A DNA stretch of 64,000 nucleotides from a bacterium (GTDB taxonomy: Bacteria > UBA8248): the NCBI GenBank assembly GCA_963692865.2, contig OY843592.1, positions 768,001 through 832,000 on the forward strand. The letters run 5' to 3'. The position numbers and the translations under genes are program-made. Each line of letters opens with the position of its first letter. Within the stretch, counting starts at the first letter, position 1. This document shows positions 1,885-60,321 of the stretch, one piece after another. A model generated the notes under the pieces. The model saw only the letters and a list, made by a program, of their open reading frames with translations, was not told where the DNA came from and ran no database searches.

Positions 1885-2118
1885 GCTTTTGTCCTCGCGT
1901 TTTTGGGTAGTTGACGGGTTCGCGGCGCGAGTGCGCCCAAGCGGGAAATATCCTAGAAGGCGGGGCGGGGAATTGCAACAGGAAAATAAAGGGGTGAGAA
2001 GCCTTGGTAGAGGTTGTATACATGCGACCCGGCTTTTTTTCGTCGGACCCGGCAAAGGAACGCATTTATGTGTCCCCTATGGGTTGATGAGCAGCGAATG
2101 ATGACGTTCTATCTAAAT

Positions 2119-2188
2119 TGCCGTCATTCCGGTGTCAGTCCCGACTGAGGAAGGAGGGGCTGCGGAATCCATTTTCAAGTGGAATGAC
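2119..2188. repeat. Degenerate left arm of the GTCATTCCGG...GGAATCCA (dRS3/RPE-like) palindromic element
   Basis: TGCCGTCATTCCGG at 2119-2132 is identical to 60118-60131. GGAATCCA at 2164-2171 and GGAATGAC at 2181-2188. Confidence 0.55.
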
Positions 2189-2249: not shown

Positions 2250-2732
2250 TCAAGGCAACGAAAGATTCTTCCGCACACTTGAAATACCGCTTTGGCTGAG
2301 TTGCCGGGCTTGACGGGAATTCTTTAGAATATTGACACCAGAACTGGCAATCCACACGAAACGAAAGTCGTCTTTGGCGAAAATTGTCATTTTCTTGAGT
2401 TGCTCGGCTTCGCTATTCAGCCAGTCCCGCAACCACTGCAGTTTGTTGACAACCCCAGAAACTTCCCTTGTCGTCGCCGAGTGCACTTCTACCCAAACTG
2501 CGCATTCCCGTCCGTTTTCCGGTTTATAGCCGAGACCGTAATCCCAGCGCGGTTTATCGGCGTAACCCGGCTCTTGCGCCAAGGCCGAGTCCAGAAAGAT
2601 GCTCCCGGTCAGCCGTCGTGAATCGGCGCATGTCACGAGTCTGCGATGCCTGTTCTCCAATGCCTGTTTTCCTTGACAATACGCGCGATTCACCGGGGAC
2701 GGCGCGGCCTCGACCGCCTTCTTGAAGGTCAT
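2250..2732 (-). CDS. Hypothetical protein, putative PD-(D/E)XK-like nuclease, partner of the upstream ATPase
   Basis: 160 aa ORF whose start overlaps the ATPase stop (ATGA). Motif RWDY...AVWVEVH...EV...KL.W resembles the restriction-endonuclease fold D...(E)xK with H in place of K. Lower GC than the flanks. Confidence 0.6.
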   Translation of the reverse strand: MTFKKAVEAAPSPVNRAYCQGKQALENRHRRLVTCADSRRLTGSIFLDSALAQEPGYADKPRWDYGLGYKPENGRECAVWVEVHSATTREVSGVVNKLQWLRDWLNSEAEQLKKMTIFAKDDFRFVWIASSGVNILKNSRQARQLSQSGISSVRKNLSLP

Positions 2733-3913
2733 GACGCATCGGTCGGCAGGCGGTTAACGACTTCAGCGACAATATCCCCTACATTGCCGGAGAATTCGGT
2801 GAGGCCGCCCCAGCCTCCTTCCGCGATATCATCCGAGCCGGGGTCGAGGTCGGATATGTCATGAACAACGCCGTCCCGTTTGAAATAGTATGTTCTGAAT
2901 TCGCTCTTTAGAGCAGTATCAGCCAATTCCTTCGTTTTGTTATTGCGGGCAAGACCGAGAAGCTTCAGGACATCTCCGATTTCTCCGCCGTTTTCCTGAA
3001 AGAAGCGCAGCGCCCATACGACGTCGAGGACATGGGGCGAGTGCGTGGAGATGCAAACGCGGTATCCGCGCAACTGCAATTCCATGATGAGATTTAGTAC
3101 CGCTCCGATTCCGTTCGGATGCAGTCCCATTTCCGGTTCTTCGATTACGACCCATTCTATATCGTTGCGGGTCGGTACTTTGGACGGCGGTAGAAGCCAG
3201 TACAGCCCGAGCAACAGCGGCACGAATTCACGTTGCCCGGCCGACCATACGAGATAAGGCAAAGAGTTACCGGAACTCTGATTCAGAACCAGACGCCCCT
3301 GGTGACCCGACGTATCCGTGCGCAGCCCGAAATCTCCAAAAATATGTTTTTCCAAAGGCTTCCGCAGGGTCGCCGCCAAACGTTGCGAACGTGGGAAGAT
3401 ATTTTGATCGAGACCGATTTCATTTTGTACGATGTTGTGGAGCTTTTCACTGAAATCCCGAAGAACGAAGGGATCTCCAGCCCGGTAATCATTAAACGGT
3501 CGGGTCATTCCGTCTCGCAGGCTCATGACTCGTTGAGCGGGTATATAAAACAATTTTTCCGAAGCTTTGGATCGACTACGGCGTGTGTAGCCCATTAGAT
3601 CGGTAGGCTTGAGATCAGAAGGCTTGCTTTTCTGGCCCAAGAACAATCTGCTGTTCTCTTCCGACCAGATCGACGCCATCCCTTCACCGAAATACAGATC
3701 GAAAAAGGTTTTCGAATCGCTACTCTGCGCCAAACTAAAGTGCTTCATGGTCTTGTGTATTGCAGATTTGTCTACAAGCAGTTTCAGGAGTTGCAAGAAG
3801 ATACTTTTTCCGGTCGCCTGCGGGCCTACGAATATTGTTATGTCACCAAAGCGGATGTCCGCTTCTTTGACCGGCCCGATATTGGAAGCTCTTATTCGCT
3901 CGACCATACCCAA
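2729..3913 (-). CDS. ABC-type (AAA_15/AAA_21, AbiEii/OLD-like) ATPase
   Basis: N-terminal NIGPV, Walker A GPQATGKS, YIPAQR, signature WSAGQ, Walker B/D-loop IEEPEMGLHP, H-loop STHSP. No membrane partner. The start could be ATG 3907. Confidence 0.9.
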   Translation of the reverse strand: MGMVERIRASNIGPVKEADIRFGDITIFVGPQATGKSIFLQLLKLLVDKSAIHKTMKHFSLAQSSDSKTFFDLYFGEGMASIWSEENSRLFLGQKSKPSDLKPTDLMGYTRRSRSKASEKLFYIPAQRVMSLRDGMTRPFNDYRAGDPFVLRDFSEKLHNIVQNEIGLDQNIFPRSQRLAATLRKPLEKHIFGDFGLRTDTSGHQGRLVLNQSSGNSLPYLVWSAGQREFVPLLLGLYWLLPPSKVPTRNDIEWVVIEEPEMGLHPNGIGAVLNLIMELQLRGYRVCISTHSPHVLDVVWALRFFQENGGEIGDVLKLLGLARNNKTKELADTALKSEFRTYYFKRDGVVHDISDLDPGSDDIAEGGWGGLTEFSGNVGDIVAEVVNRLPTDAS

Positions 3914-4068
3914 ACTGCCTTCGAGTTAAGAGTTTTTGCTCATCATGAGCACCACTGTTTTGATGCTATTGTGTCAAAAAACCTGGCGTTCCACCAACCT
4001 TGCTAAATCTTGAAAGCGATATCCCGGTTCAAGCTCGGAATACAGAATCGATGTGTCTCTGATCCACA

Positions 4069-4234
4069 TGGATTCCGGCTTTCGCCGGAATGACGGGAAA
4101 AAACCGTAAGCCCTTTTGCATTGACTGGCACAATCCCTCTGCCAGAAAAACAGGGGCGACCCCCGTTGGAGGCCGCCCCTACAAATGTTCGTTGTTTTGC
4201 TGCGAAGAGGCCGTTCTTGTGAACGGCCCCTACA
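4069..4234. repeat. Repeat cluster: TGGATTCCGGCTTTCGCCGGAATGAC arm plus GTAG/CTAC-type REP palindromes
   Basis: 4069-4094 matches 60227-60252 and 61986-62011. GGCCGTTCTTGTGAACGGC(CCCTAC) at 4209 matches 60279 and 62038. Confidence 0.8.
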
Positions 4235-4242
4235 GAGTTATC

Positions 4243-7200
4243 CTACCAGCGCAGGGAGCCGCGCAGCGCCACGCCGTGGACGGGGTCGTCGTCCTGGCGT
4301 TCGCGCACGCCGCCCTCGACGCTCATGCTGAGGCGTTCGCCCACCCTGAAGCGGCCGCCCAGGCGGTAGGCGCCGCCGTCCTCAGAGGCCGAAAGCCCCG
4401 CGTAAGGCGTGAGCAGACCGCCCCAGGCGGCGAGCCCGTAGCCCACCTCCGCGCGGACGCGGGGGTCCGTGTCCCCGGCCTCCTCGCGCGCCAGGCGCGA
4501 GGCGTCCTCGACGCCCCACAGCCGCCCGGCGCCGCCCGCCGTCTCGCCCACGGCGGGCTCCACGGTGAGGGCGAGCCCCCGGCCCGCCTCGCCCGGGTCG
4601 ATGCGGATCATGCCGCCCGCGCCCCAGTCCGCCGCGTCTTCCCCTTCATGCGTTATCAGCCCGCGCGCCCTGAGCTCCAGCGTGAGGCCCCAGGCGGGGT
4701 TCGCGAAGTGGAGACTTCCCCCCACCTCCACGCCGACGCCCTCGTCCGCGTCGCCCCCGTCGTGGCGGAGGCCCGCCTCCACCGAGGGCGTGAACGCGCC
4801 GCCATTCTCCATCGCCACCTCGCGCGAGGCCTCCAGCATCAACCGAAGCCGCGTCGCCTCCGCCGAGACCGCCGCGAGGCCGCCGGCCGCGTCCGCGTCC
4901 GTCTGCGCGAGTAGGGCGTCGGACTTGAGCGCCAGATCGAACCCGCCCACCTTGGCCAATTCGCCCCGGACCCCGAACGCGCCCATGCGCGTCTCGAGAT
5001 CCGTCTCGATCTTCCGTCCCTTCTCCTCCAGCGTCATCTCGCCCCGGCCCATGCCGAGGACGCCCCATACCGATATCCGCTCGTTCAGCGCGAAGCGCAG
5101 GTAGGGGTGCGCGCTCACGAGCTTCGCCTCCACCCCGCTGCGTCCCGCGCTCCCGAAGCCGCCCTTGCCCCTGGCGTGGGAGAGCGCCACGCCCAGGAGG
5201 ACGCCGTCCTTCTCGTAGTCCATCCCCAGCATGGCCGTCGTCACGTCGCCTTGGGCGCCGCCGCCCTCGAACGAGGTTTGCGCGCCGCGTCCCCACATCG
5301 ACCAGCGTCCGCCCGGGACGGCCTCGGCCTCCTTCGCCGAGGCCAGGTGGAACGAGCCGCCACGGAGGAGTTCGCTCACCGTCGTCTCGCGGTATCCAGG
5401 TCCGCCGGCGGTTCCCCGCCGCGCGAGGCCGCCGGAAGCCCCGCCTTGTTTCGCCAGGAGACGCTCTATATCCTCGTTCAGGTCCACGCCATGCCCGCCG
5501 ATAGTCATCTTCGCCCCCTCGGGCGCGGGGGCGTTCATGCGGCCGGTGATCATCTCCACCGCCCCGCTCCCCGCCGCCCGGCCGAAGCGCGCCAGCCAGC
5601 CGGTGGGCGGCGCCGCGGGCGCGGCAGGCGTCGCGGCGGCGGATTCGGGCGAGGCCGCGCCCGCGCCCACCGCGTTCACCGCGCGCACCTTGAAGCGGTA
5701 GGCCACGCCGTTCGTCAGGCCCGTGACGGTGTGGCTCCTCGTGGACGCCCCGCTGTCCGGGACGTCTCTCCAGATCGTCTCGAAGGGTTTGCCGCCCTCC
5801 TTCCTGACGTACTGCCACTTCGTGATCGCAGAACCGCCGTCGCCGCCCGGGGTCCACGACAGCGCGACGCGCGCGTCGCCCGCCGCCACTCCCGGCATCG
5901 AGGGCGCGAGGGGCGCCGTGGTCGTCGGACCTGCCTCCGGCGCACCCCCCGCCTCGTTCGACCACGCCCCGTCGCCGGTTGCGTTCACGGCCGCCACCCG
6001 CAACGTGTATTCCGTCGCGTTCGTCAGGCCGGTAATCGTGTGCTCCGCGCCCGTGGCGCCCGCCTGGCGGCTCGTCGCGTCCCAGCTCTCGTTCCCCGAC
6101 TTCCACTGCACCTTGTAGCTCGTCGCGCTCCGGACGTCCGTCCACGACACCCTGAGTTGCTCGTTGAGGGCGGCGACGATCACGACGCCGGTCGTCTTGC
6201 CCGGCTTCGTGAGGAACGGTGGCGCGCTCGCAAGTTCCACGAGGCAGTCCTTGTCGCCGTAGGCCTTGAAGGCGTAGTCCGTCCCCGGCGTCAGGTTCAC
6301 AAGGCTCGCCGTCAAGGTTCCGATGTCGATCTTCGAGGAACAGGCCCCGCCCGCCGGCGAGACGTATCGGTACCACCAGTCGCCCGCGTGGTTGGCGATG
6401 GTGAGCGTCGCCGTCGCCGCCTCGATTGAATTTGCGGTCAGGGTCGATGCCACCGGCATCACGGAGGCCGACTCGTCCGATTCCTCGCCGTCGCCCGAGG
6501 CGTTCACGGCGCGCACCTTGAAGACGTAGTCCGTCCCGTCCGTGAGGCCGGAGACGACATGGTTCAGCGTCCGCGACGTGGCGTCGACGCCGGTCCAATC
6601 CGGGTCGAAGTTTCCGTTCTCGGGCTTCTTCTTGTACTCCCACCTCCTCAGGTCGGCGTTGCCCGTCACCGAGGAGGCGAGGGTGAGCTTGCCGTTGCCC
6701 GCGCCCGGCATCGCCGTCGGTTTGGCCGGCTTCGGCGGGAGGGTCGGGAACGCCACAGCCGTAGCCACCGCTGTCGCGCAACTGTCGCTGTAGGCCGTGA
6801 AGGTGTAGCTGGTGTTCGCCGCCAGGTTCGTCACGCTCGCCGTCGTCCCGGTCTGCTCGGTGGAGCAGGTCCCGGAGGCGTGCTTGTAGTGCCAATTGCC
6901 CGGATAGTTGCCGATGGTGAGGGTCGCCCCGTTCTTCGTGACGTTCGAGACCGTCAGCGTCTCGTCCGCCGGCGCCGCCGCAACCGACTCGTCGGACTCC
7001 TCGCCGTCGCCCGAGGCGTTCACGGCGCGCACCTTGAAGACGTAGTCCGTCCCGTCCGTGAGGCCGGAGACGACGTGGTTCAGCGTCCGCGATGTGGCGG
7101 CGACGCCGGTCCAGTCCTGATCGAAGTTGCCGCCCGCCTCTTTCTTCTTGTACTCCCATCTGCTCAGGTCGGCGTTGCCCGTCACCGAGGAGGCGAGGAT

Positions 7201-10200
7201 GAGCTTGCCGCTGCCCGCACCCGACGCCGCCGTCGGCGTAGCCGGCTTCGGCGGGAGGGTCGTGAACGCCGCCGCCGTCGCCACCGCTGTCGCGCAACTG
7301 TCGCTGTAGGCCGTGAAGGCGTAGGAGGTGTTCGCCGCCAGGTTCGTCACGCTCGCCGCCTTCCCGGTCTGCTCAACGGAGCAGGTCCCGGAGGCGTGCT
7401 TGTACCACCAGCCGCCCAGGTGGTTGCCGATGGTGAGCGTGGCCCCGTTCTTCGTTATGCCCGAGACCGTCAGCGTCTCGTCCGACGGCGTCACCCCATC
7501 CGACTCCGGCGAGGCCGCGCCGTCGCCTTTCGCGTTTACGGCGCGCACCTTGAACTTGTAGGCCGTCCCGTTGGTCAGGCCGCTTACCGTCGCCGTGATC
7601 GGGCCGGTCCCGCTCGTGGTCAGGCCCTTCCAGGTCGCCTCGAAGGGGTTGTTCCCCTCTTTCTTCACGTACTGCCACTTCGTGATTGCCGATCCGCCGT
7701 CGCCGCCCGAGGTCCACGACAGCGCGACGCTCTGGCTCCCGGCGGTCACCCCCGGTTTGCCCGGCGCGGGCGGCGTCGTGGCCGGCGTTATCAAACCGGA
7801 CTCGGGCGAGGCCGCGCCGTCGCCAATCGCGTTTACGGCGCGCACCTTGAACTTGTAGGCCGTCCCGTTGGTCAGGCCGCTCACCGTCGCCGCGATCGGA
7901 TTCGTCCCGTTCGTGGTCAGGTCCTTCCAGGTCGTCTCGAAGGGGCTGTTCCCCTCTTTCTTCACGTACTGCCACTTCGTGATTGCCGATCCGCCGTCGC
8001 CGCCCGAGGTCCATGACAACTCGACGCTTTGGTTCCCGGAGGTCGCCCCCGGCTTGCCCGGCGCGGGCGGCGCGGTTGGCGCCTTCGTCGTGAAGTTTGC
8101 GGTTGCGCCTGGGATGAGCTCCGAGGAGTTGCAACTCGGACTGCTGTAGGCGATGAATCTGTATGACGTGCTCGGCTTCAGAGTGGTTAGCGTCGCCGTC
8201 GTCGCCGGAGAAACGACCTTGACGCAGAGTGGGTTTGTTGTTGTCGGCAAATCTTGGCTATACCACCAATCCCCCGGCTGGCCCGAGATCGTCAGCGTCG
8301 CGCTCGTTATGTTCACGGCGCCGGACGTCAACGACCGCGTCGCCGCCGGCGTCCCCTCATTCGACTCGGGCGAGGCCGCGCCGTCGCCTTTCGCGTTCAC
8401 GGCGCGGATCTTGAACTTGTATTTCGTCCCGTTGGTCAGGCCGCTCACCGTCGCCGTAATCGGGCCGGTCCCCTGGACGGTCAGGTCCTTCCAGGTCGTC
8501 TCGAAGGGGCTGCTCCCCTCTTTCTTCACGTACTGCCACTTGGTGATCGCCGAGCCGCCGTCGCCGCCCGAAGTCCACGACAACGCTGCGCTTTGGTTCT
8601 CGGCGGTCATCCCCGGTTTCGTCGGCGCAGGCGGCGTCGTCGCCGGCGTTATCGAATCAGACTCAGGCGAGGCCGCGCCGTTTCCAATCGCGTTCACGGC
8701 GCGCACCTTGAACTTGTAGGCCGTCCCGTTGGTCAGGCCGGAGACGGTGTAGCCGATCTTGCTCGGGCAGTTCGAATCGTTCGTGGTCGTGCAGATGTCG
8801 GTCCAGCTGCCGTAATTGTCCGTCGATTCGGCGTATTGCCACTTGGTGATCGCCGAGCCGCCGTCGCCGCTCGAAGCCCACGACAGCGCGGCACTTGCGG
8901 CGCCCGCCGTCACCCCCGGTTTCGTCGGCGCGGGAGGCGCGGAAACCGCCGCCGTCGTGAAGGCCTCATCCGCGCCTTCGATTGTGAGCGTGGTCGGGCA
9001 ACCCGAAGCGCTGTACCCGGAGTATTCGTACGTCGTGCTCGGCGTGAGATTGGTGAGGTTCATCGTCGTCCCCGACGCCTTCGTGCAGGGACCCTCGGGC
9101 GTCGGTTTCTTCTTTATGTACCACCAATCCCCCGTATGGCCCGTGAGCGTCAGCGTCGCCGACTTCGCCTTGACGTTGGTCGCGGTCAGCTTCGCCGCCG
9201 CCGGCGTCACCACGTCCGACGCGGGCGAGGCCGCGCCGTTGCCCACCGCGTTCACGGCGCGCACCTTGAAGATGTAGGGCGTCCCGTTGGTCAGGCCGCT
9301 CACCGTCGCCGTGATCGGGTTGGTCCCGCTCGTGGTCAGGTCCTTCCAGGTGATGAAATTGTCCGCCGATATGGCGTATTGCCACTTGGTGATCGCCGAG
9401 CCGCCGTCGCCGCCCGAAGTCCACGACAGCGTCACGCTCTGGTCATCGTAGTCCACCCCCGGCTTCGACGGCGCGGGGGGCGCGGTCGGTGTGGTGAACG
9501 CCGCCGCGGTGGCCAGCTCGGTCACGCAGCTGTCGCTGTAGGCCGTGAAGGTGTATTCCGTCCCCGGCGTCAGGGTCGACACGTTCGCCGTCGAGTTCCC
9601 GGCGCTTACCTTCGAGGAACAGGTGCCGGAGGCGTGCTTGTACCACCACTCGTCCGTATGACCGGAGATCGTCAGCCTCGCCGTGGTCCCGGTGACCGCG
9701 TCGACGGTCAGCGCGACTATCTCCGTGGCATCGACGCTGAACAGGCCGGAGCCCATGGAGTTGTCGCTGTACCATTGGGGCGGGGTGCGCTGGTATTTGT
9801 CGTCGTTTCCGATCGACCAGCCGTTGTTCGCCGGCGTCTGCGTCTGAGCGTCGGACGTCGTATTCCTCCAGGCGTAGTGGTTGGTCCCATCCGCGCCGTC
9901 CGGCGCCGCGAACACCAGCCAATAGGTCGTGCTCCCCTTCAGGTCGCATCCCGAACCCGAGCAGGTGTAGGTATAATCCCCCCGGGTGTCGGGGGCGTTG
10001 CCGCTCAGCGTCACGACCTCCGACCCCGGGCTGCCCGCGGAATCCGTGAAGATGCCGGCTTTGAACCCTGCCGGGCTTCCCACCTTGTTCGCGAACTTGG
10101 TCGTGATGCTGTTCAGCGTGTGGCCGACGGCGGCGGGGCCGGTCGTGAAGGACGTGGCGTGTTTCCGCAAGTCGACGACTTTGATCACGTGGCCTACGAG

Positions 10201-10398
10201 ATTCTTGCCGACGCGCATGGAGGTGGCGTTCTCGCTCTCGCTCATGTTGCTGACGACAGTGGCGGCGCGGGCGTCCGGCGGGGCGAGCAGGTCCCCGGCC
10301 GGCAGCAGGATCAGGGCGAGGAGCGAAGCGAGCGCGAGGGCCGGGAGACGAACAAGCGTCGGGATTCGGGGTTTGGCGGTGCAACCGTTCGATGTCAA
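4243..10398 (-). CDS. Giant fibronectin type III repeat autotransporter (surface adhesin-like)
   Basis: TTG start at 10398 behind AAGGAG, then a signal peptide. Nine FN3 repeats (SWT.GGDGGSAITKWQY...GLTNGT.Y.FKVRAVN) and six shorter Cys-pair modules. C-terminal beta-barrel (WLARFGR...SMWGRG...PY.G) ending in LRGSLRW. Confidence 0.88.
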   Translation of the reverse strand: MTSNGCTAKPRIPTLVRLPALALASLLALILLPAGDLLAPPDARAATVVSNMSESENATSMRVGKNLVGHVIKVVDLRKHATSFTTGPAAVGHTLNSITTKFANKVGSPAGFKAGIFTDSAGSPGSEVVTLSGNAPDTRGDYTYTCSGSGCDLKGSTTYWLVFAAPDGADGTNHYAWRNTTSDAQTQTPANNGWSIGNDDKYQRTPPQWYSDNSMGSGLFSVDATEIVALTVDAVTGTTARLTISGHTDEWWYKHASGTCSSKVSAGNSTANVSTLTPGTEYTFTAYSDSCVTELATAAAFTTPTAPPAPSKPGVDYDDQSVTLSWTSGGDGGSAITKWQYAISADNFITWKDLTTSGTNPITATVSGLTNGTPYIFKVRAVNAVGNGAASPASDVVTPAAAKLTATNVKAKSATLTLTGHTGDWWYIKKKPTPEGPCTKASGTTMNLTNLTPSTTYEYSGYSASGCPTTLTIEGADEAFTTAAVSAPPAPTKPGVTAGAASAALSWASSGDGGSAITKWQYAESTDNYGSWTDICTTTNDSNCPSKIGYTVSGLTNGTAYKFKVRAVNAIGNGAASPESDSITPATTPPAPTKPGMTAENQSAALSWTSGGDGGSAITKWQYVKKEGSSPFETTWKDLTVQGTGPITATVSGLTNGTKYKFKIRAVNAKGDGAASPESNEGTPAATRSLTSGAVNITSATLTISGQPGDWWYSQDLPTTTNPLCVKVVSPATTATLTTLKPSTSYRFIAYSSPSCNSSELIPGATANFTTKAPTAPPAPGKPGATSGNQSVELSWTSGGDGGSAITKWQYVKKEGNSPFETTWKDLTTNGTNPIAATVSGLTNGTAYKFKVRAVNAIGDGAASPESGLITPATTPPAPGKPGVTAGSQSVALSWTSGGDGGSAITKWQYVKKEGNNPFEATWKGLTTSGTGPITATVSGLTNGTAYKFKVRAVNAKGDGAASPESDGVTPSDETLTVSGITKNGATLTIGNHLGGWWYKHASGTCSVEQTGKAASVTNLAANTSYAFTAYSDSCATAVATAAAFTTLPPKPATPTAASGAGSGKLILASSVTGNADLSRWEYKKKEAGGNFDQDWTGVAATSRTLNHVVSGLTDGTDYVFKVRAVNASGDGEESDESVAAAPADETLTVSNVTKNGATLTIGNYPGNWHYKHASGTCSTEQTGTTASVTNLAANTSYTFTAYSDSCATAVATAVAFPTLPPKPAKPTAMPGAGNGKLTLASSVTGNADLRRWEYKKKPENGNFDPDWTGVDATSRTLNHVVSGLTDGTDYVFKVRAVNASGDGEESDESASVMPVASTLTANSIEAATATLTIANHAGDWWYRYVSPAGGACSSKIDIGTLTASLVNLTPGTDYAFKAYGDKDCLVELASAPPFLTKPGKTTGVVIVAALNEQLRVSWTDVRSATSYKVQWKSGNESWDATSRQAGATGAEHTITGLTNATEYTLRVAAVNATGDGAWSNEAGGAPEAGPTTTAPLAPSMPGVAAGDARVALSWTPGGDGGSAITKWQYVRKEGGKPFETIWRDVPDSGASTRSHTVTGLTNGVAYRFKVRAVNAVGAGAASPESAAATPAAPAAPPTGWLARFGRAAGSGAVEMITGRMNAPAPEGAKMTIGGHGVDLNEDIERLLAKQGGASGGLARRGTAGGPGYRETTVSELLRGGSFHLASAKEAEAVPGGRWSMWGRGAQTSFEGGGAQGDVTTAMLGMDYEKDGVLLGVALSHARGKGGFGSAGRSGVEAKLVSAHPYLRFALNERISVWGVLGMGRGEMTLEEKGRKIETDLETRMGAFGVRGELAKVGGFDLALKSDALLAQTDADAAGGLAAVSAEATRLRLMLEASREVAMENGGAFTPSVEAGLRHDGGDADEGVGVEVGGSLHFANPAWGLTLELRARGLITHEGEDAADWGAGGMIRIDPGEAGRGLALTVEPAVGETAGGAGRLWGVEDASRLAREEAGDTDPRVRAEVGYGLAAWGGLLTPYAGLSASEDGGAYRLGGRFRVGERLSMSVEGGVRERQDDDPVHGVALRGSLRW

Positions 10399-10854
10399 GA
10401 TGTTTCTCCTTTCGTCGTTCCAGGAATTTTTTATTTTTTTCGACTCCCGGTTCGGAAGCGGACACACTTATAAATGACTATTCAATTAAATTTCGGCCCC
10501 TCGTCGTCGCCCAGCCGTTTTCGCTCCCCGCCCTTGCATACCGGAAAGCGCCGCCGCCGGATCCGGCGCCTTGCGCGTTTCGCCGGGGAATCGGACGCCT
10601 TGAAGGCGCAATCCCCCGAATCACCGCACGAAACGGCGTCCTCGAAACTCCCGGACGCATTTCAGGCCGTTCGGCGCACAGTCCATGACGGGGAATGGAA
10701 GGGGGGCTTCCGCTTTTTCGGCCCCCGCAGGAGCCGCCTCGCGATCAGCGGAAATCCGTGAAACAACCTTGCATGGATTATATGCCAAGTATAATTTTGG
10801 GCGATTCGATTCGAGTTGTCAAGCGGGGATAATGAGGAGGCGTTGAACAACTCT

Positions 10855-11400
10855 TCTCCGCCTCATCCCGAGTAGCGGCGAAGCCGCGTATCGAAGGGCG
10901 AAATTCGCGTCCCGCCGGTTGGATGCGTTCCCCCATCCTTCGATACGGCGCTTGCGCGCCTGCTCAGGATGAGGAAAGAGGCGTCGGCGGTTCGCGGGGG
11001 GTCGAAGAGGGGGGTTTTTCAACAGCCCCTTGTCAGGGGGGTAAAAAAACAACGCCCTCCTTGACGGGGAGGCGAGAAAAAACCCCTTTGTCGGGCCTGT
11101 TGAAAAACCCTGTTTGCGTGATTCGGCGCATGTAATCGACAGACGAGAGAGAAGATACGCTCCCCCCTTGAGGGGGCTGTTGAAAAAGCCGGAGAGAGAC
11201 AATTTGTTTGCAGGTGACAACCCCTCCTCGGGGTTGTCCCACGCATATCGAACGGCGATGGGCCGCATGATATGTCAGACATATATGTCCGACCCGCGCC
11301 ATCCTCGCGTTTTGCGTAGCAGGACAGGCGCGGAGGCCTGTCCCTGCGGTTGCCATCCGCAAAAAAACCGGGCGGACACATCGGTCCGCCCCTACAAGCC
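10855..11400. repeat. Composite intergenic repeat cluster (BIME-like CCTCATCC.GAGTAGCGGCGAAGCCGCGTATCGAAGG pair, GGCTGTTGAAAAA IS-end-like motifs, CCCCCTTGAGGGGG, REPs)
   Basis: Motifs recur at 12553-12888, 15176-15664, 53088-53412 and 54831-55095. Confidence 0.8.
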
Positions 11401-11437
11401 GAACTGATCGATCAGAGAGAATACGAACCCCGAAACC

Positions 11438-12535
11438 CTAATACACGTCCGTCGTGCTCTCGCCGACGGCCTGCTGCTTGGGACGCCAGCGCAGGAGGTA
11501 GCGCTCCAGCCAGTTCACCGCCGCGTTGGCGATCAAGACAATGAACATGAGCAGGATGAGTCCCGCGAACGAGCCCGCGATGTTGAAGAGGTTGCTCGTG
11601 TGCTGGATCATGAAGCCCAGACCCTTGCTCGCCGCCATGAACTCGCCCAGGATGGCCCCGATGATGGCGAAGGGAACGCCGATCTTGAGGCCCGTCAGTA
11701 TCCAGGGCATCGCGGCGGGCAGGGTTACCTTCCAGAGAACCTGCATCTCGTTCGCGCCCATCACCTGGGCGAGGTTCTTGAGGTTCGGGTCCACGCCCCT
11801 GAGGCCCGAGTAGGTGTTCATGAAGGTGAGGAACAACACCAGGCTCACCGCCAGCACGATCTTCGACTCCACCCCGATGCCGAACCAGATGATGAGGATC
11901 GGCGCCATCGCCACGCGCGGGATGCCGTTCACCGCGACGATGAAGGGGTCGAGAATCTCGGCCAGGGTCTCGAGCCGCGCCAGTATGAAACCTAAGGCTA
12001 TCCCCAACGCCGCGCCCAGGACGTAGCCCAGGAACGCCTCGTACATCGTCGTCCACGTGTCGATGAAGAGGCTGCCCGAGAGGGTTATCTCCACCAGGTA
12101 GCTCAGGACGCGCAGGGGGGAGCCGAACCAGAACGGATCGACGCAGAGCCACTGCTTGGGGCCGATCTCCAGGGCGCTGAGTTCCCACATGGCGAGAAAG
12201 CCGACGGCGAATGAGGCCCGGTAGGCGAACATGCGCATCTTCTGGTTCTTGATGATGCGCCCGGTGCGCGTGATGGATACGTCCACGAACGCGATGGCGT
12301 GGAAGAACATGCCCGTCACGGAGCACATCATGTAGCCCGCCGCGGCGAGGCCCAGCAGGAGCGCGCCTATCAGGTAATCGCCCCGCCAGAGCTGCGGAAC
12401 GCCAGGAAGGGGGATCGTCAGGAGAAACTCGCCCCACTTGGGCAGCCTGACGCGGGCGGCAGCCGCCTGCGCGGCCTGCTCCGCATCGTTCGTTCCCTTC
12501 TCCCCGCTCGCCTCTTTATCGATCATGTCGGCCAT
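11438..12535 (-). CDS. NitT/TauT family ABC transporter permease
   Basis: IPRVAMAPILIIWFGIG, EAA-like LAQVMGANEMQVLWKVTLPAAMP, GEFMAASKGLG. Confidence 0.9.
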   Translation of the reverse strand: MADMIDKEASGEKGTNDAEQAAQAAAARVRLPKWGEFLLTIPLPGVPQLWRGDYLIGALLLGLAAAGYMMCSVTGMFFHAIAFVDVSITRTGRIIKNQKMRMFAYRASFAVGFLAMWELSALEIGPKQWLCVDPFWFGSPLRVLSYLVEITLSGSLFIDTWTTMYEAFLGYVLGAALGIALGFILARLETLAEILDPFIVAVNGIPRVAMAPILIIWFGIGVESKIVLAVSLVLFLTFMNTYSGLRGVDPNLKNLAQVMGANEMQVLWKVTLPAAMPWILTGLKIGVPFAIIGAILGEFMAASKGLGFMIQHTSNLFNIAGSFAGLILLMFIVLIANAAVNWLERYLLRWRPKQQAVGESTTDVY

Positions 12536-12552
12536 GTCAATTCCCCTCTCAT

Positions 12553-12888
12553 GGGGCTGTTGAAAAAGCCCTGTTCACCCGGAACTCACCCTCCACCGGC
12601 TCGGCTGCGGACTGCGCTCATGAGCAGCATCGCCGACCGACGAGAGAGAAGAGAACCACTCCCCTCTTGTTGAGGATAAGGCACAATCAACGAGAGAGGA
12701 AATTCACTCCCCCCTTGAGGGGGTTGTTGGTAAAACCGGAGAGAAACAATTTGTTTGTAGGGGTCGCATATCATGCGACCCTGATTTTCGCCTCCACAAG
12801 GCGGGCCGCATGATATGCGGCCCCTACAAAAACCATTCCTCCCCGGTCACGTAAAACACTCTTCGTCAGGACCTTTTTCAACAACCCC
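12553..12888. mobile_element. MITE, ~336 bp, with 16-bp terminal inverted repeats and 5-bp target site duplication CTCAT
   Basis: Left end GGGGCTGTTGAAAAAG, right end CTTTTTCAACAACCCC (15/16 match). CTCAT at 12548-12552 and 12889-12893. Internal GTAG-REP doublet at 12757-12827. Confidence 0.75.
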
Positions 12889-12889
12889 C

Positions 12890-13705
12890 TCATCCGCTCT
12901 CTGAACCCGCGGACCCGTTTTTCATCCAGTCCTCGCTGCGCTGGACCTCCTCGCGCAATTCCTGCCACAGCTGATCGTAGGTCTTGCGAAACGCCTCCTC
13001 GCTGTGGATGGTGAAAACGTCGCGCGGACGCGGAATGTCCACTTCGGCGACGCTCCTCAAGTTTCCGGGCCGGCTCGTCATGACGACCACTCGATCGGCC
13101 AGGGCGATGGCCTCGACGAGATCGTGCGTGATGAAGATGACCGTCTTACGCGCCTCGCGCCAGAGTTTCAATAGTTGATCCTGAAGGATGATGCGCGTCT
13201 GCGCGTCGAGCGGCCCAAACGGCTCGTCCATCAGGATGACATCCGGATCGTAGATAAGAGTGCGGATGATGTTGGCCCGCTGGCGCATCCCGCCCGAGAG
13301 TTCGTGGGGGTAGTGATCCTCGAACCCCGCGAGGCCGACGCGCTGGATGAGTTCACGCGCCTTGTCGTGTCTGGTCTTCTGGTCGACGCCCCGCATCTCC
13401 AGCGGAAAGGCGACGTTGTTGATGAGCGTGCGCCAAGCGTAGAGATAGTCCGACTGCGGCACGTAGCCGATATCGGTGTTGATGCCGTGCAGCTTTTTAT
13501 CCTTGTAAGTGATGGTTCCCGAGGTGGGGTGCACGAGCCCGATAATGCAGTTCAGGAGCGTGGACTTCCCGCAGCCGCTTGGCCCCACGATGGTGATGAA
13601 CTCGCCGTCTTCGATATCGAGGCTCAAATCCTCGACGGCGAGAACGCGGTTTCCCCGCGAGAAGAATTCCTTTTGCAGGTTCTTGATCGAGAGAATTGGA
13701 GGCAC
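12890..13705 (-). CDS. NitT/TauT family ABC transporter ATP-binding protein
   Basis: GPSGCGKS, LSGGMRQR, ILMDEPFGPLDAQTR, FITHD. Confidence 0.95.
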   Translation of the reverse strand: MPPILSIKNLQKEFFSRGNRVLAVEDLSLDIEDGEFITIVGPSGCGKSTLLNCIIGLVHPTSGTITYKDKKLHGINTDIGYVPQSDYLYAWRTLINNVAFPLEMRGVDQKTRHDKARELIQRVGLAGFEDHYPHELSGGMRQRANIIRTLIYDPDVILMDEPFGPLDAQTRIILQDQLLKLWREARKTVIFITHDLVEAIALADRVVVMTSRPGNLRSVAEVDIPRPRDVFTIHSEEAFRKTYDQLWQELREEVQRSEDWMKNGSAGSESG

Positions 13706-13721
13706 CGGGCATGAATCTCCG

Positions 13722-13759
13722 CCGCCGGGGAGGGGCTTCTGACGGCCTCTCCCCGGCGG
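13722..13759 (-). promoter_or_regulatory. Intra-operon stem-loop downstream of the SBP gene (mRNA stabiliser or partial terminator)
   Basis: CCGCCGGGGAG...CTCCCCGGCGG inverted repeat between the SBP and ATPase genes. Confidence 0.45.
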
Positions 13760-13783
13760 TTTTACAGAGTCAGTAGTTTCCGC

Positions 13784-14830
13784 TCACATCTTGCCGGGCA
13801 GATATTCGTCCGTCACCAGGGTGCTCCTGGGGAACGCCTTCTTGAGCTTGCCGGCAGCGATGAGCAGGTTCTGCGTAATGTCCACCGCGCGCTGCGTGAT
13901 TTTCCCGTCGAGCGAGACGGCCGTCTTCACCGCCTCGATGCTCACGCGCAGCAGGTTCTTGTCGGTCTTGGCGAAGTATAGCTGGATCTTCTTGCGAATA
14001 TCCTCCGCGCTGTGCTTGGCGATCCAGTTGTTGGCCTTGAGAAGCGCCCGGACCACCTTGCGGACGGTCTCGGGGTTTTTCTTCGCATATTCGGGCCGCA
14101 CGAGCAGGACCTCCATCATGAACTGGTCCATCTCCGGGTCGTCGCCCGCGGAGTTCGTAACGAAGGGAATGCCGATGCCCTTGAATATGGCCGTCTCCGG
14201 TACGGGAATCGTCTGGATCGCGATTTGAATCTTGTTGCGCTGCAGCGCGGCGACGAGCACAGGCCCCGCGCCCGCGCCGATGAGCTTCACCTCTTTGTTG
14301 GGCGTGTAGCCGGCCTGGCGGATCCAGTATTCACCCTGGTTGTAGGTGAGCGCGCCGGGACGCGTGGCGCCCACGGTCAGGCCCTTCATCTTCTTGATCT
14401 TTTCCTTGTAGGGCGTCTTGGCGGTGATGCCGAGCTTCTTGGCGACGTCCTTGCGGATGGCGGAGTTGACGATGCTGCGGTTGAGACAACTCATCACCGC
14501 CACGAGGGCGCCGCCCGCCTTGACGGCGTTGATCTGGTAGGTGCCCGCGGCGATGGAGAAATCCGCCTGGCCCGCGAGGTTGGCCTTGATGTCCGGCCCG
14601 CCGCCCCGCGTGGAGATGACCTCGGCGGCCAGTCCCTCCTCGGCGAAGTAGCCGTTCGCGCGCGCCACGTAGTTGCTGACGAAGGCGAGACTCTCGACCG
14701 CCTGGGTGATGACGACCCGTTTGACGGCCGACTCCGAAGGCGTGGCGGCGGTGAAGACGAGCGCCACTCCCAGGATGACCGCCAGAACCGACTTGATGAT
14801 GAAACCCCTTAGGTTCGTTCTCGTATCCAC
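13784..14830 (-). CDS. NitT/TauT (SsuA/NMT1-like) ABC substrate-binding protein
   Basis: Signal peptide, GYFAEEGL, KKNPETVRKVVRAL. First gene of an SBP-ATPase-permease operon. Confidence 0.88.
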   Translation of the reverse strand: MDTRTNLRGFIIKSVLAVILGVALVFTAATPSESAVKRVVITQAVESLAFVSNYVARANGYFAEEGLAAEVISTRGGGPDIKANLAGQADFSIAAGTYQINAVKAGGALVAVMSCLNRSIVNSAIRKDVAKKLGITAKTPYKEKIKKMKGLTVGATRPGALTYNQGEYWIRQAGYTPNKEVKLIGAGAGPVLVAALQRNKIQIAIQTIPVPETAIFKGIGIPFVTNSAGDDPEMDQFMMEVLLVRPEYAKKNPETVRKVVRALLKANNWIAKHSAEDIRKKIQLYFAKTDKNLLRVSIEAVKTAVSLDGKITQRAVDITQNLLIAAGKLKKAFPRSTLVTDEYLPGKM

Positions 14831-15175
14831 GATTTCAGCCTCCCCTCTGGGCCGCAGGATTCGCGGCTTGCGTCATGGACTCATTCAACGCCCCGAGGCG
14901 GGGCGCACTCAGTGTATCGGGAATATATGATTCTCCTTCGATTCCTCTGCATCGGAAACACAGTAATACCGAAAGAGCATTGGATGATTTTATGATGATG
15001 ATAATGCCAGAGAATACCACGTTTCTCAAAATCGCCGCAACTTCATACGGACATTCCCGCATGAGCGAAAAGACCATCGGTCGCGAAGTTCCCGGCCGTG
15101 AAGCCTGCGTGAGCGGGGCCCTTGAAAAAGCCCCCCCCCCGACAAGGGTGATTGGGGGTAGAACGCGACCCAGGA

Positions 15176-36566: not shown

Positions 36567-37550
36567 ATGCCTGAACTCACATACGTCGAAGCCCTGAACG
36601 AGGCGCTCCATGAGGAGATGGCGCGCGACGAGAAGGTGTTCCTCATGGGCGAGGACGTGGCGTTCGATTATTTCGGCGTGTGCTCGGGGCTGGCCGACCG
36701 CTTCGGCCGCGACCGGGTGCGCGACACGCCCATCTGCGAACTCGGCTTCACGGGCGCGGGCGTGGGCGCGGCGATGGCGGGCTTTCGGCCCATCGTGGAT
36801 TTGCGCTTCATGGACTTCACCACCTACGCGCTCGACCCCATCGTGAACCAGGCGGCGAAGCTCCGCTACATGCTGGGCGGGCAGCTTTCGGTTCCCATGG
36901 TGGCGCGGATACCCAGCGGCGCGGGGCTTCAGTACGGCGCGACGCACGGGCAGTCGCTCGAGGCGTGGTTCATGCAGGTGCCGGGCCTGAAGGTCCTCTA
37001 CCCGAGTTGCGCGCCCGACGCCAAGGGGTTGCTCAAGGCCGCCGTCCGGGACGACAACCCGGTCATGTTCATCGAGCACAGGCTGCTCTATGCGCAAAAG
37101 ACGAAACAGGCCGTGCCCGAAGGCGATCACACCACGCCCATCGGGGTGGCCGACGTGAAGCGGGCGGGCGCGGACGCCACCATCGTGGGAATCGGCTATC
37201 AGATGGGCCATTGCCTGGAGGCGGCGGAAGCGCTTGCGGGAGAGGGAATCGAGTGCGAGGTCATCGACCCGCGTTCGCTCTCGCCTCTGGACGTGGAGAC
37301 CATCACGGCCTCCGTGCGCAAGACGAGCCGCTGCGTCATCGTGGAGGAGGGGCACCTGAGGAGCGGCGTGGGCGCCGAGATATCAGCCGCCATACAGGAG
37401 TCGGTGTTCGAATACCTGGACGCGCCCATCGGCCGCGTGGCCGCGCTCATGGCGCCGATTCCCGTTCAGACGAAGCTCGAGAAGTTCGTGCTCCCGAGCA
37501 CGGAGAAAGTCATCGCGGCGGTCCGCAAGACGCTGGGCGTCTCCGCCTGA
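36567..37550 (+). CDS. ThDP-dependent dehydrogenase E1 beta subunit, copy 2
   Basis: LMGEDV, DTPICE, NQAAK, THGQ, DAKGLLK. Confidence 0.92.
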   Translation: MPELTYVEALNEALHEEMARDEKVFLMGEDVAFDYFGVCSGLADRFGRDRVRDTPICELGFTGAGVGAAMAGFRPIVDLRFMDFTTYALDPIVNQAAKLRYMLGGQLSVPMVARIPSGAGLQYGATHGQSLEAWFMQVPGLKVLYPSCAPDAKGLLKAAVRDDNPVMFIEHRLLYAQKTKQAVPEGDHTTPIGVADVKRAGADATIVGIGYQMGHCLEAAEALAGEGIECEVIDPRSLSPLDVETITASVRKTSRCVIVEEGHLRSGVGAEISAAIQESVFEYLDAPIGRVAALMAPIPVQTKLEKFVLPSTEKVIAAVRKTLGVSA

Positions 37551-37553
37551 TCC

Positions 37554-38537
37554 TCAGTCCTGGGCGACGATGGGGTTTCTCAACACCCCCACGTGCTCGA
37601 CCTCACACTCCACCACGTCTCCCGGCTTAAGCAAGTAAGGTTCCGGGTCTTCCTGCTCCAGGGCCACGCCGCAGAACGTGCCCGATGAGATGATGTCGCC
37701 CGGCTCCAGCGACATCTGGCTGTAGAAGGCGATGAGTTCTGGGATCTTGAAGATCATGTCGGTCAGAAGCTCGTCCTGGCGCGTCTCGCCGTTCACCCGG
37801 CATTGCACCCGCAGCGATTCGGGGTTCGGCACCTCGTCCGCCGTGACGATGTAGGGGCCGATGGGGTTGGTGGTGTCGAAGTTCTTGCCCAGGAACACGC
37901 CGCCAAGAGCGGCGGAGCGCTGCACTTCGCGCGCCGTGATGTCATTGTAGACCGTGTAGCCCATGATGACGTCGAAGGCGTTCTCGGGCTTCACGTCCTT
38001 GCAGTGTTTGCCGATGATGAAGCCGACCTCCACCTCGTAATCCAGCATTTTGGTCTGCCTGGGATAGAGCACCGGCTCCTCGTGGCCGACGAGCGAGGAG
38101 TCGAAGCGCGGCGCGCCGGGCACATTTTCGGGAACCGAATGACCCGTGTTCGCGACGTGCTTGTTCGAGTTGAGGCCTGTGTGGAAGAACTTGCCCGGGT
38201 GGGGGATCGGCGCTCTCAGGCGAACGTGCCTGTCTTTCAAGGCGGCGAACTCTCCGTCCGGCCCCGCAGGCTCTCCGCCTGAGACGATTATCGCCTCCGC
38301 GTGACCGAGCGCCGCGCCCGCCGCCGCCATGGCCGGTTCTCCGCCGCAGAGAAATTCGCGCATGTCCCGGGGAATCCGCGCGTTCGCCATGGCGTAGGGG
38401 CGTCCTTCACCCTCATTATCTGCGAGATAGCTCGCGTAGGCGAGTCTTAAGTCGAGCATCCTCCCGTCTTTCAGGACGGCGCCCAGGCGGTCTCCGGTGG
38501 CGCCCGGCGAGAGGTTCTGGTAGGTGGCGAGTTTCAT
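37554..38537 (-). CDS. Fumarylacetoacetate hydrolase family protein
   Basis: LDYEVEVG, YNDITAREVQ, GKNFD, PGDIISSGT, GDVVECEVEHVGVLRN. Confidence 0.92.
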   Translation of the reverse strand: MKLATYQNLSPGATGDRLGAVLKDGRMLDLRLAYASYLADNEGEGRPYAMANARIPRDMREFLCGGEPAMAAAGAALGHAEAIIVSGGEPAGPDGEFAALKDRHVRLRAPIPHPGKFFHTGLNSNKHVANTGHSVPENVPGAPRFDSSLVGHEEPVLYPRQTKMLDYEVEVGFIIGKHCKDVKPENAFDVIMGYTVYNDITAREVQRSAALGGVFLGKNFDTTNPIGPYIVTADEVPNPESLRVQCRVNGETRQDELLTDMIFKIPELIAFYSQMSLEPGDIISSGTFCGVALEQEDPEPYLLKPGDVVECEVEHVGVLRNPIVAQD

Positions 38538-45807: not shown

Positions 45808-46743
45808 ATGGATGTCCTTGAATTTGGTCTGGCAAATGGTGTTGTAATTATTGTGGTCTTGTTCGCTTTGTTGATTATCAAGAAAGGCGTAAAAATTGTT
45901 CCGCAGTCGGAGGTCTTCATAGTAGAAAGGTTTGGTAAATACACACGGACACTGACAGCAGGGCTGAACCTTGTCGTACCTTTCCTTGACAAGATATCCC
46001 GTCGGATATCAATACTCGAACGCCAGCTTCCAGAATTCTCGATTAGTGTGATTACACGAGACAACGTCGAAGTTAGTCTTGAATCCACAGTTTTTTATCG
46101 AATTGTCGACGCCGCTCGTTCTGTGTACCGAATTCGAGATGTTGATTCGGCCCTTCACACTGAGGCATCGTCGATTGTGCGCTCGGCGGCTGGCCGTCTT
46201 GAACTAGATGAGTTGCAATCGTCGCGCGAATCAATGAACCAAGAAATTGGCGAGAACCTCCAAGCCAAATCAGACGAATGGGGCCTCGAAATTACTTCGA
46301 CGGCGATAATTGATGTTGTGGTCGACAATCAGACTAAAGATGCACAGCGTCAGCAGTTGAATGCCGAGCGTGAACGACGCGCCGCGATCGCTCGTGCGGA
46401 AGGAGACAGGCGCGCTGTTGAGTTGGCAGCAGAAGCCAAACTGTTCGAAGCGCAGAAAGAGGCAGAAGCGCTTCGCCTGACTGCCGATGCCGAAGCCTAC
46501 TCGGTACGTGTAAAGGCAGAGGCAGATGCTGAACAAACCCGACTTATCGCCTTAGCAATTGCTGAAAACGGTCAGCCAGCCATCAATTTTGAAGTGTTAA
46601 AGCGTCAAGTCGATGCTCTTGGCCAACTCGCTTCCTCACCAAACGCCAAGACTGTTGTGGTGCCAACCGATATCACGGGTGTCATCGGTTCTCTGCAATT
46701 ACTTGCAGAAAACTTTCAAAGGCCGACAAATGGGAATACTTAG
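45808..46743 (+). CDS. SPFH/band 7 (stomatin/QmcA-like) protein
   Basis: N-terminal transmembrane segment, VERFGKY, ITRDNV, AERERRA...AEG coiled coil. Low GC. Confidence 0.92.
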   Translation: MDVLEFGLANGVVIIVVLFALLIIKKGVKIVPQSEVFIVERFGKYTRTLTAGLNLVVPFLDKISRRISILERQLPEFSISVITRDNVEVSLESTVFYRIVDAARSVYRIRDVDSALHTEASSIVRSAAGRLELDELQSSRESMNQEIGENLQAKSDEWGLEITSTAIIDVVVDNQTKDAQRQQLNAERERRAAIARAEGDRRAVELAAEAKLFEAQKEAEALRLTADAEAYSVRVKAEADAEQTRLIALAIAENGQPAINFEVLKRQVDALGQLASSPNAKTVVVPTDITGVIGSLQLLAENFQRPTNGNT

Positions 46744-47038
46744 CGCCATAACATATTGGGTATTTTTGCCTGAAACTTGGGTGCTTCTCGCGCTTGTTCT
46801 GATTTGCGCCGATATTTTGCTTGCCTTTGATTTCTTCGTATTGTCAATAGGTATTGCTGCCCTAATTCTTGCTGGCCTTTTGTTCATGGAAAGAAATCTT
46901 TGGCTGGGTGATATCATGTTATTCCAGACTTGGCGTGATATCGCTTTTTGGTTTGCCGGTCTGTCGATTGGTTCAACAATTCTTATACGATTGATGTTGC
47001 AACGTCGCCATGTTGATTCGGATATCAATGAATACTGA
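46730..47038 (+). CDS. Short NfeD-like membrane protein
   Basis: W.LLALVLI..DI...FFVLSIGIAA, three hydrophobic segments. Overlaps the SPFH gene end. No C-terminal OB-fold visible. Confidence 0.7.
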   Translation: MGILSAITYWVFLPETWVLLALVLICADILLAFDFFVLSIGIAALILAGLLFMERNLWLGDIMLFQTWRDIAFWFAGLSIGSTILIRLMLQRRHVDSDINEY

Positions 47039-60117: not shown

Positions 60118-60253
60118 TGCCGTCATTCCGGCGAATGCCGGAATCCAGTGACTTTGTCTCTGTTTTTGTCTTTTCGTTTTTATTGTTTTTGGGGTTGTCC
60201 TGCGATACAGGTATTCCCGTTGGTTCTGGATTCCGGCATTCGCCGGAATGACG
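60118..60253. repeat. Complete dRS3/RPE-like element: GTCATTCCGGCGAATGCCGGAATCCAG-spacer-CTGGATTCCGGCATTCGCCGGAATGAC
   Basis: Perfect inverted arms at 60122-60148 and 60226-60252 around a T-rich spacer. Confidence 0.85.
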
Positions 60254-60321
60254 AATAAAACCGCTCCGCCCCGTAGTGGGCCGTTCTTGTGAACGGCTCA
60301 AGGTCGCGACCTGTCCTTACA
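60227..60321 (+). repeat. 95-bp direct repeat, left copy
   Basis: Matches 61986-62080 with 2 mismatches. Confidence 0.92.

Follow-up and report, generated by a model that had tools for sequence, protein, structure and literature searches.

A two-gene operon lies on the minus strand of the stretch analysed here, a 64,000-nt window of bacterial DNA (contig OY843592.1, positions 768,001 to 832,000), and on sequence grounds it is a member of PDC-M56, a catalogued candidate phage-defence system of the PADLOC database that is predicted only. All coordinates below are those of this window unless another locus is named. Gene A (2729..3907, minus strand) encodes an ABC-type ATPase of 392 aa, counted from a conserved ATG, and gene B (2250..2732, minus strand) encodes a stand-alone protein of 160 aa that is a probable divergent PD-(D/E)xK-type nuclease (D64, E82-x-H84, K97); they correspond to PDC-M56A and PDC-M56B, respectively. 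The two genes share the bases ATGA (2729..2732, minus strand), which contain both the stop codon of A and the start codon of B; this translational coupling had been pointed out in the first-pass annotation of this DNA and is present in the sequence. The longest mechanical open reading frame (ORF) for gene A runs from 2729 to 3913 (minus strand), begins with a TTG at 3913, and gives 394 aa. By comparison with related sequences the true start is almost certainly the ATG at 3907, because this ATG is invariant across ten aligned upstream regions and query residue 3 is where the alignment of most homologues starts. Residues of A are numbered in either the 394-aa (TTG start) or the 392-aa (ATG start) scheme, as indicated.

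The pair occupies a low-GC islet between host genes, as originally described. GC content is 0.52 in the islet versus 0.626 in the remainder of the window (in sliding windows, 0.46-0.58 within the islet and 0.64-0.78 outside), and GC content at third codon positions (GC3) is likewise low, 0.57 and 0.60 in the two module genes versus about 0.8-0.9 in neighbouring host genes. The flanking genes are housekeeping genes, one encoding a family-5 solute-binding protein (SBP; 187-2055) and the other a 2074-aa protein with fibronectin type III (FN3) repeats (4243-10467). Rfam and tRNA scans of the window found nothing, so there is no tRNA integration site and no known RNA partner. The islet is a genuine, horizontally acquired operon, and the A-B observation is far beyond chance because B has hundreds of homologues and both genes are under purifying selection (discussed below).

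Searched against PADLOC-DB v2, A matches PDC-M56A with an E value of 7.3e-145 (480.7 bits; residues 5-387 on profile positions 2-379 of 382), and B matches PDC-M56B with an E value of 3.9e-45 (151.5 bits; residues 2-156 on profile positions 7-147 of 151). No other PADLOC model matches B at E<=1, and a NCBIfam scan gave no meaningful match for either protein. Both hidden Markov models (HMMs) are matched, by genes that are adjacent on one strand with a 4-nt overlap, and the locus differs in nothing from the PADLOC entry, itself a prediction only. The first-pass annotation had suggested a distinct, uncatalogued system, and had added that a full match to a named system would show it not to be novel. 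As both proteins match PDC-M56A/B over their full length, the suggestion fails and the system is therefore not novel; the locus is an unremarkable representative of a catalogued candidate, and its architecture is of a known kind. What is new here is an active-site hypothesis for B (D64, E82, H84, K97), the strict operon linkage of the pair, and its occurrence mostly as solitary islets outside defence islands.

Linkage, spread and selection of the pair

Scanning one genome per species, we identified 67 loci (designated L001, L002, and so on). A lies directly upstream of B in all 64 testable loci, B being at a contig edge in the remaining three (L041, L061, and L065), and the pair thus co-occurs strictly. 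The junction is measurable in 62 cases; it is a 4-nt overlap in 38 and a 1-nt overlap in 7, and the remainder are mostly short gaps. Judged by the class names in their record titles, the 67 loci belong to about 11 phyla, between which protein identity is 60-70%. Where at least 7 kb of sequence is available on both sides (39 loci), the 310 neighbouring ORFs, up to four on each side, fall into 299 clusters, and only the pair itself is conserved. Module GC is below that of the flanks in 54/54 loci, with means of 0.57 and 0.637, respectively.

One of these loci, L001, is syntenic with the window on the downstream side, the islet being 88% and the SBP gene 87% alike. Between the two, A, B, and SBP show a synonymous divergence (dS) of 0.31, 0.24, and 0.35 and a ratio of nonsynonymous to synonymous divergence (dN/dS) of 0.19, 0.36, and 0.19, respectively. 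Given this synteny, a dS near that of SBP, and the low dN/dS, the islet is old in its lineage and maintained by selection. Seven further pairs gave dN/dS values of 0.06-0.21 for A and 0.12-0.51 for B, with one further B pair saturated and giving no value; both genes are under purifying selection. The A-B pair is thus a self-contained, horizontally mobile accessory module with its own leader.

Individual loci depart from the simple arrangement. In L003, near-duplicate isochorismatase and hydantoinase-B genes flank the pair (4747-7290 and 12501-14975 of that locus) and an rve-type integrase gene is found at 10797-11648, so that the module apparently lies within a duplicated segment beside an insertion sequence. 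L002 contains at 4672-5406 a second, partial ATPase copy, equivalent to residues 150-394 and 80% identical to A of the window, about 3.4 kb upstream of its complete pair. L029 and L031 are on one chromosome (OZ242200.1), which carries two module copies with identical match statistics, one at the record start and one about 1.17 Mb in. In L007, L012, L025, L050, and L066, A aligns as two pieces in different frames, and the protein P0178 continues from a broken A into B. Either these copies are decaying or their sequences contain errors. P0178 (389 aa) was considered as an A-B fusion and rejected, as a frame-disrupted stretch separates its portion from the N-terminus of A from the B that follows. 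P0252 carries only the C-terminal part of B. A search for longer, fused forms of B found none, which is weak evidence by the nature of the search.

An ABC-type ATPase and a small putative nuclease

Gene A encodes a soluble ABC-type ATPase, as its first reading had it; Pfam, invariant motifs, and both structural and profile matches place it with the defence-associated ATPases OLD, PtuA, AriA, and GajA. It exceeds the Pfam cut-offs for AAA_21 (56.6 bits; cut-off 27) and AAA_15 (55.2 bits; cut-off 32.1). The motifs originally quoted are all found in the translation (394-aa numbering): GPQATGKS at 30-37, WSAGQ at 223-227, IEEPEMGLHP at 257-266, and STHS at 291-294. In 40 A sequences from the loci (392-aa numbering), Walker A K34, Q-loop Q125, signature residues S222/G224/Q225, Walker B E256, the catalytic E257, and H-loop H289 are invariant, as is a C-terminal W366-G-G motif. 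Judging by these intact motifs, A is likely to be catalytically competent.

The AlphaFold model of A has a predicted local distance difference test score (pLDDT) of 84.4 and a predicted template modelling score (pTM) of 0.89. In a Foldseek search of the PDB with this model, the best match is PtuA of Septu/retron systems (E 1e-7, probability 1.00, template modelling score [TM] 0.40 for 8eea; TM 0.44 for 9e90), followed by Rad50, GajA, AriA, and SMC heads; in all there are 154 matches at E<=1e-3, with 12-17% identity. The sequence profile of A against the PDB returns the OLD-family nuclease 6p74 first (6.7e-11), with PtuA at 3.5e-6 and GajA at 9e-5, and the best non-self PADLOC matches are AriA models (E 6.7e-17), with a weak match to HEC-02A (E 6e-11). 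No nuclease or other effector domain was detected in A by Pfam or in the AlphaFold model, nor is a coiled-coil insertion seen in the model.

Homologues of B numbered 278 in a word-indexed search, and an exhaustive search gave 797 representative clusters (at 50% identity) at E<=1e-3, nearly all among the matches listed being 145-180 aa long. In 81 B sequences (34-69% identity), the only invariant columns are S44, D64, E82, H84, K97, and W127; Y65 is near-invariant. The motifs that had first drawn attention to B, RWDY (62-65), WVEVH (80-84), and EV..V..KL.W (90-100), are found in its translation, and, in agreement with the same annotation, neither Pfam nor PADLOC gave an HNH or TOPRIM match.

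The best AlphaFold model of B (pLDDT 93.6, pTM 0.89) consists of a strand (41-46), a short helix, two further strands (65-69 and 77-87), a helix (88-108), and a strand (125-134). In this one confident model of five, the order of elements is that of the PD-(D/E)xK core, strand-strand-strand-helix-strand, with D64 opening strand 2 and E82 on strand 3. In the canonical site, as described by Steczkiewicz et al. 2012 (PMC3424549), the second core strand carries an Asp at its N-terminus and the third carries Glu-x-Lys. B does not have this motif: the position of the strand-3 Lys is taken by the invariant His H84, and an invariant Lys, K97, is on the next helix. The same source describes Pa4535 (1y0k), in which the Lys has moved onto the adjacent second core helix, forming PD-EXX-K (PMC3424549). 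On the predicted structure, D64, E82-x-H84, and K97 on the helix would fit this lysine-migration pattern. K97 is at the position corresponding to that of the Pa4535 Lys, but this is an analogy of motif geometry rather than demonstrated homology; B has no significant sequence or fold match to any PDB entry.

Among the 48 weak PDB fold matches listed for B, at least 18 are proteins that we take to be PD-(D/E)xK nucleases, including FokI, EndoMS/NucS, SwaI, BamHI, MspI, Mus81, SfsA, AgeI, BbvCI, and Card1. Named weak fold matches among viral proteins (BFVD) include VRR-NUC, UL24, Cas4, Mrr, DUF2726, and MGME1. Of the named Atlas clusters nearest to B, PDDEXK_11 (at 0.77) is a lead only, and in the Pfam scan of the family AHJR-like (0.066) and PDDEXK_10 (0.15) each appear in 1/81 members. 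Based on the predicted fold and the conserved residues, we consider B to be probably, if not securely, a nuclease of the restriction-endonuclease fold. Its effector family is covered by neither Pfam nor the PDB.

The presence of Rad50 and SMC heads among the significant structural matches of A, together with the repair nucleases EndoMS/NucS and Mus81 among the weak fold matches of B, might suggest an accessory DNA repair or recombination pair, composed of a Rad50/RecF-like ATPase and a structure-specific nuclease, rather than immunity. This seems very improbable given that the model of A has no coiled-coil insertion, that the best matches of A are defence ATPases, and that the distribution of the module is patchy, with GC below that of the host in every one of the 54 loci and without conserved synteny.

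Alternatively, B could be an RNA-targeting nuclease, for example one acting on tRNA, and the ATPase would then free or switch on an RNase that stops translation in the manner of PARIS or PrrC/RloC. The invariant H84 and K97 and the near-invariant Y65 are reminiscent of the Tyr-His-Lys site that arose on the PD-(D/E)xK fold in tRNA-splicing endonucleases (PMC3424549), and AriA-type models are the best non-self PADLOC matches of A. The invariant acidic pair D64/E82, however, occupies the place of the metal-binding site of DNA nucleases, and B resembles neither AriB nor anticodon nucleases. The structures closest to A are moreover those of PtuA, whose partner PtuB cuts DNA. An RNA target is therefore, in our view, distinctly unlikely.

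A candidate ATPase-gated nuclease defence module

Our favoured reading, to which we assign a probability of roughly one half, is that PDC-M56 is an ATPase-gated nuclease defence module. One of its bases is that the family was first noticed inside defence loci: Payne et al. (10.1101/2024.01.29.577857) predicted 145 'phage defence candidate' (PDC) systems by guilt-by-embedding, from genes inside BREX, DISARM, or type I restriction-modification (RM) loci, and these were added to PADLOC as candidates. For the mechanism, we infer nuclease activity of B, an A-B complex, ATPase gating, and anti-phage function by analogy with Septu, PARIS, and HEC-02. As an ATPase of the PtuA/OLD/GajA/AriA kind, A would sense infection or nucleotide state, and would hold or license the nuclease B. 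B, as a small stand-alone effector and putative divergent PD-(D/E)xK nuclease with D64, E82, H84 in the Lys position, and K97 on the helix, would then cleave nucleic acid of the phage or of the cell, thereby stopping phage spread. A prediction of the A+B complex scored 0.02 against a mark of 0.32; made without controls, it says nothing for or against binding.

This reading draws on a design that is common to several known systems. Septu has the same two-gene design, pairing the ABC ATPase PtuA with the HNH protein PtuB. Although PtuA is the best structural match of A, A is only 12-17% identical to it and scores 13.4 bits (E 0.027) with the NCBIfam PtuA model, for which the cut-off is 500, and B is neither an HNH protein nor a match to any PtuB model. 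PARIS (the ABC ATPase AriA and the TOPRIM protein AriB) shares the logic of an ATPase scaffold with a separate effector, and AriA is both the best non-self PADLOC match of A and a significant structural match (8v47). However, the match to AriA extends only over residues 115-295 of A, and B shows neither a TOPRIM/DUF4435 match nor similarity to AriB. OLD-family nucleases and GajA of Gabija have an ATPase of the same class as A (AAA_15/AAA_21) but carry a fused TOPRIM nuclease, whereas A lacks one and its effector is a separate gene. HEC-02, validated in 10.1101/2024.01.29.577857, combines an ABC ATPase with a NERD protein, a PD-(D/E)xK nuclease, and is the nearest validated analogue of the proposed mechanism. 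The pairing is the same, but B matches neither NERD (Pfam) nor HEC-02B (PADLOC); it is much smaller, and E-x-H plus the helix Lys replace the canonical motif.

A bolder version of the defence reading is possible but doubtful. PDC-M56 would be a genuine, widespread anti-phage system (approximately 800 clusters in approximately 11 phyla) in which B founds its own branch of the restriction-endonuclease superfamily, with a D / E-x-H / helix-Lys site in which the His may be a general base and for which the target may be RNA. B would be licensed by a minimal PtuA-like ATPase without the insertions of the known systems.

A number of observations weigh against PDC-M56 being an ATPase-gated nuclease defence module, and several of them concern the nuclease. 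Only 1/5 models of B is confident; the other four score 77.6, 46.5, 41.5, and 39.3. Foldseek with the best model found no match at E<=1e-3 (best E 0.08 in the PDB and 0.037 in BFVD; TM at most 0.39), and the profile of the 81 B sequences retrieved only noise from PDB sequences (carbonic anhydrase at 0.063, C-reactive protein at 1.5). In the Pfam scan of the 81 members at E<=10, no family recurs in more than four members, and NERD is absent. A His at the canonical Lys position is not among the variants described in the available text of PMC3424549. The restriction-endonuclease fold with D...ExH that the first-pass annotation had put forward agrees with the predicted order of elements and the invariant D64...E82-x-H84, and no structural or profile search gave a significant match to it.

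The same lack of a significant fold or family match, and a strand-3 motif without the canonical Lys, would suit a non-enzymatic B serving as an adaptor, a sensor, or a DNA-binding partner, in which case the ATPase itself or recruited host factors would produce the effect; the PD-(D/E)xK superfamily is also said to contain inactive homologues (PMC3424549, introduction). Invariance in B, however, is concentrated in polar residues resembling those of an active site (D64, E82, H84, and K97, across the 81 sequences), and A has no effector domain, so we think it improbable that B is not an enzyme.

Other observations against the favoured defence reading concern the system as a whole. The name PDC-M56, in several spellings, was not found in 8.4 million searchable papers, nor was any experiment on it. 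Other PDC/HEC candidates have had a mixed outcome in two reports, 4/8 being protective in one (10.1101/2024.09.26.614923) and PDC-M63AB and PDC-S04 giving no protection in the other (0/2; PMC12409345). The module is found on 0/50,697 phage records and on 1/72,556 plasmids, the single plasmid copy being on a MOBF mobilizable plasmid with A again upstream of B. In the window itself, Pfam and PADLOC scans revealed no other defence gene.

Nor do the homologous pairs generally cluster in defence islands, which had been suggested as a check. We scanned the same 310 ORFs of the 39 loci with PADLOC at E<=1e-12. Defence-related neighbours within four ORFs are absent from 27/39 loci (three of these having housekeeping look-alikes only), clear in 5/39, and present in 12/39 when doubtful ones are included, counts for which there is no random-site baseline. 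The clear cases are L008 (AbiEi), L015 (PDC-S01), L039 (PDC-S24), L050 (a type IIG RM system, the defence-associated reverse transcriptase [DRT] RT_UG21, and PDC-M41A), and L055 (AbiEii and AbiEi). The neighbours in L021, L022, L025, L028, L035, L052, and L059 are doubtful, with partial or unreliable matches. Several neighbour matches are unreliable because ordinary transporter ATPases match 'mad3' at approximately 1e-30. In the window, ABC-transporter ATPases (Pfam ABC_tran) at 12890-13705 (minus strand) and 51923-53017 (plus strand) match PADLOC 'mad3' at approximately 1e-30 and 'mad8' at approximately 1e-11. Matches to 'mad3', 'mad8', DpdF, SbcB, PolA, and BrxL among the neighbours were accordingly discounted as housekeeping look-alikes, and single PADLOC HMM matches are not enough to call defence genes. 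A Pfam scan of the first 14 loci indicates that the neighbours are mainly transporters and metabolic genes, with few transposases and toxin-antitoxin (TA) genes. According to 10.1101/2024.01.29.577857, candidates found by embedding show less association with other systems than those derived from enrichment.

Solo insertion among housekeeping genes, in these 27 of 39 loci and in the window, is also what might be expected of a selfish, TA-like addiction module, in which A would act as the ATP-dependent neutraliser of a toxic nuclease, B; such a module would persist because its loss is harmful, without any defence against phage. Its small size, with two translationally coupled genes, its wide horizontal spread, the occasional degraded copies (the five loci with a split A, and the broken read-through P0178), and the Pfam label of AAA_21 ('putative AbiEii toxin, Type IV TA system') are in line with this. 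Addiction modules are usually common on plasmids, however, and this one is rare there; moreover, the copies in the window and L001 have been kept vertically, with dS near that of the flanking SBP gene, and under purifying selection. We consider pure addiction unlikely, and TA behaviour and abortive-infection defence can coexist.

Validation of the favoured reading, an ATPase-gated nuclease defence module, would turn PDC-M56 from a system predicted in a database into a functioning one within the large class of ABC-ATPase-plus-effector immune systems. With 392 + 160 aa and an effector family outside Pfam and the PDB, it would be a very compact representative, and therefore a convenient minimal model for ATPase gating of a nuclease. 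The locus is worth a bench test.

Operon leader and repeats at the islet edges

The operon leader (3908..4002, minus strand) contains a hairpin (3997-3983), found by a terminator scan, that is followed by a T-run overlapping a TTGACA (3977-3972); a GAAGG ribosome-binding site (3922-3918) lies 10 nt before the ATG of gene A. Both the hairpin/T-run/TTGACA block and the GAAGG are conserved in loci from different phyla, the block in the window, L001, L002, L006, and L003. A promoter role for this block is putative; a consensus promoter scan reported no promoter on the minus strand. Between the TTGACA and the ribosome-binding site there is a perfect 7+7 palindrome, TGCTCAT-C-ATGAGCA (3937-3951), which is partly conserved in L001, L002, and L006 and could be an operator.

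Both edges of the islet are marked by a palindromic repeat resembling repetitive extragenic palindromes (REP-like). The copy at the upstream edge (4069..4099, minus strand) is a boundary mark outside the system, and homology with L001 ends exactly there; the second copy, at the downstream edge (2118..2171, plus strand), has an expanded loop. The palindrome, CGTCATTCCGGCGAAWGCCGGAATCCA, is dispersed and intergenic, occurring in the window at 2122-2171, 4069-4099, 60121-60131, 60243-60253, and 62002-62012 and in L001 at 7370-7380 and 8657-8667. Such sites may be recombination or insertion hot spots. The inverted repeat 2118-2132 / 4085-4099 was considered as the ends of a mobile element and rejected, as it belongs to this dispersed REP-like hairpin (60121, 60243, 62002, and L001).

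A second repeated hairpin element, consisting of GGCCGTTCACAAGAACGGCC followed by a CTACGGGG-like sequence, adjoins the REP-like repeat at 4200-4240, approximately 60270-60300, and approximately 62030-62060. One copy of it is found directly after the stop codon of the FN3-repeat gene. That gene (minus strand, GC3 0.90) encodes at least seven FN3 repeats in its 2074 aa, and in L004 a giant FN3/Calx-beta/cadherin-like protein also adjoins the A-B pair, possibly by coincidence.

Further ORFs of low GC3 (0.41-0.46) occur in the window at 36680-37630 (plus strand), 45808-46743 (plus strand), and 46699-47028 (minus strand). Pfam identifies one of them as an SPFH/Band 7 protein and matches none of the others; foreign genes or wrong-frame ORFs could explain them. 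An ORF of 295 aa at 60937-61824 (plus strand), with a GC3 of 0.42, lies between copies of the REP-like repeat that also bounds the A-B islet. It has no PADLOC match and a borderline match to DUF429 (E 8.5e-5, 22.8 bits, cut-off 23), and it may be a second small acquired islet.

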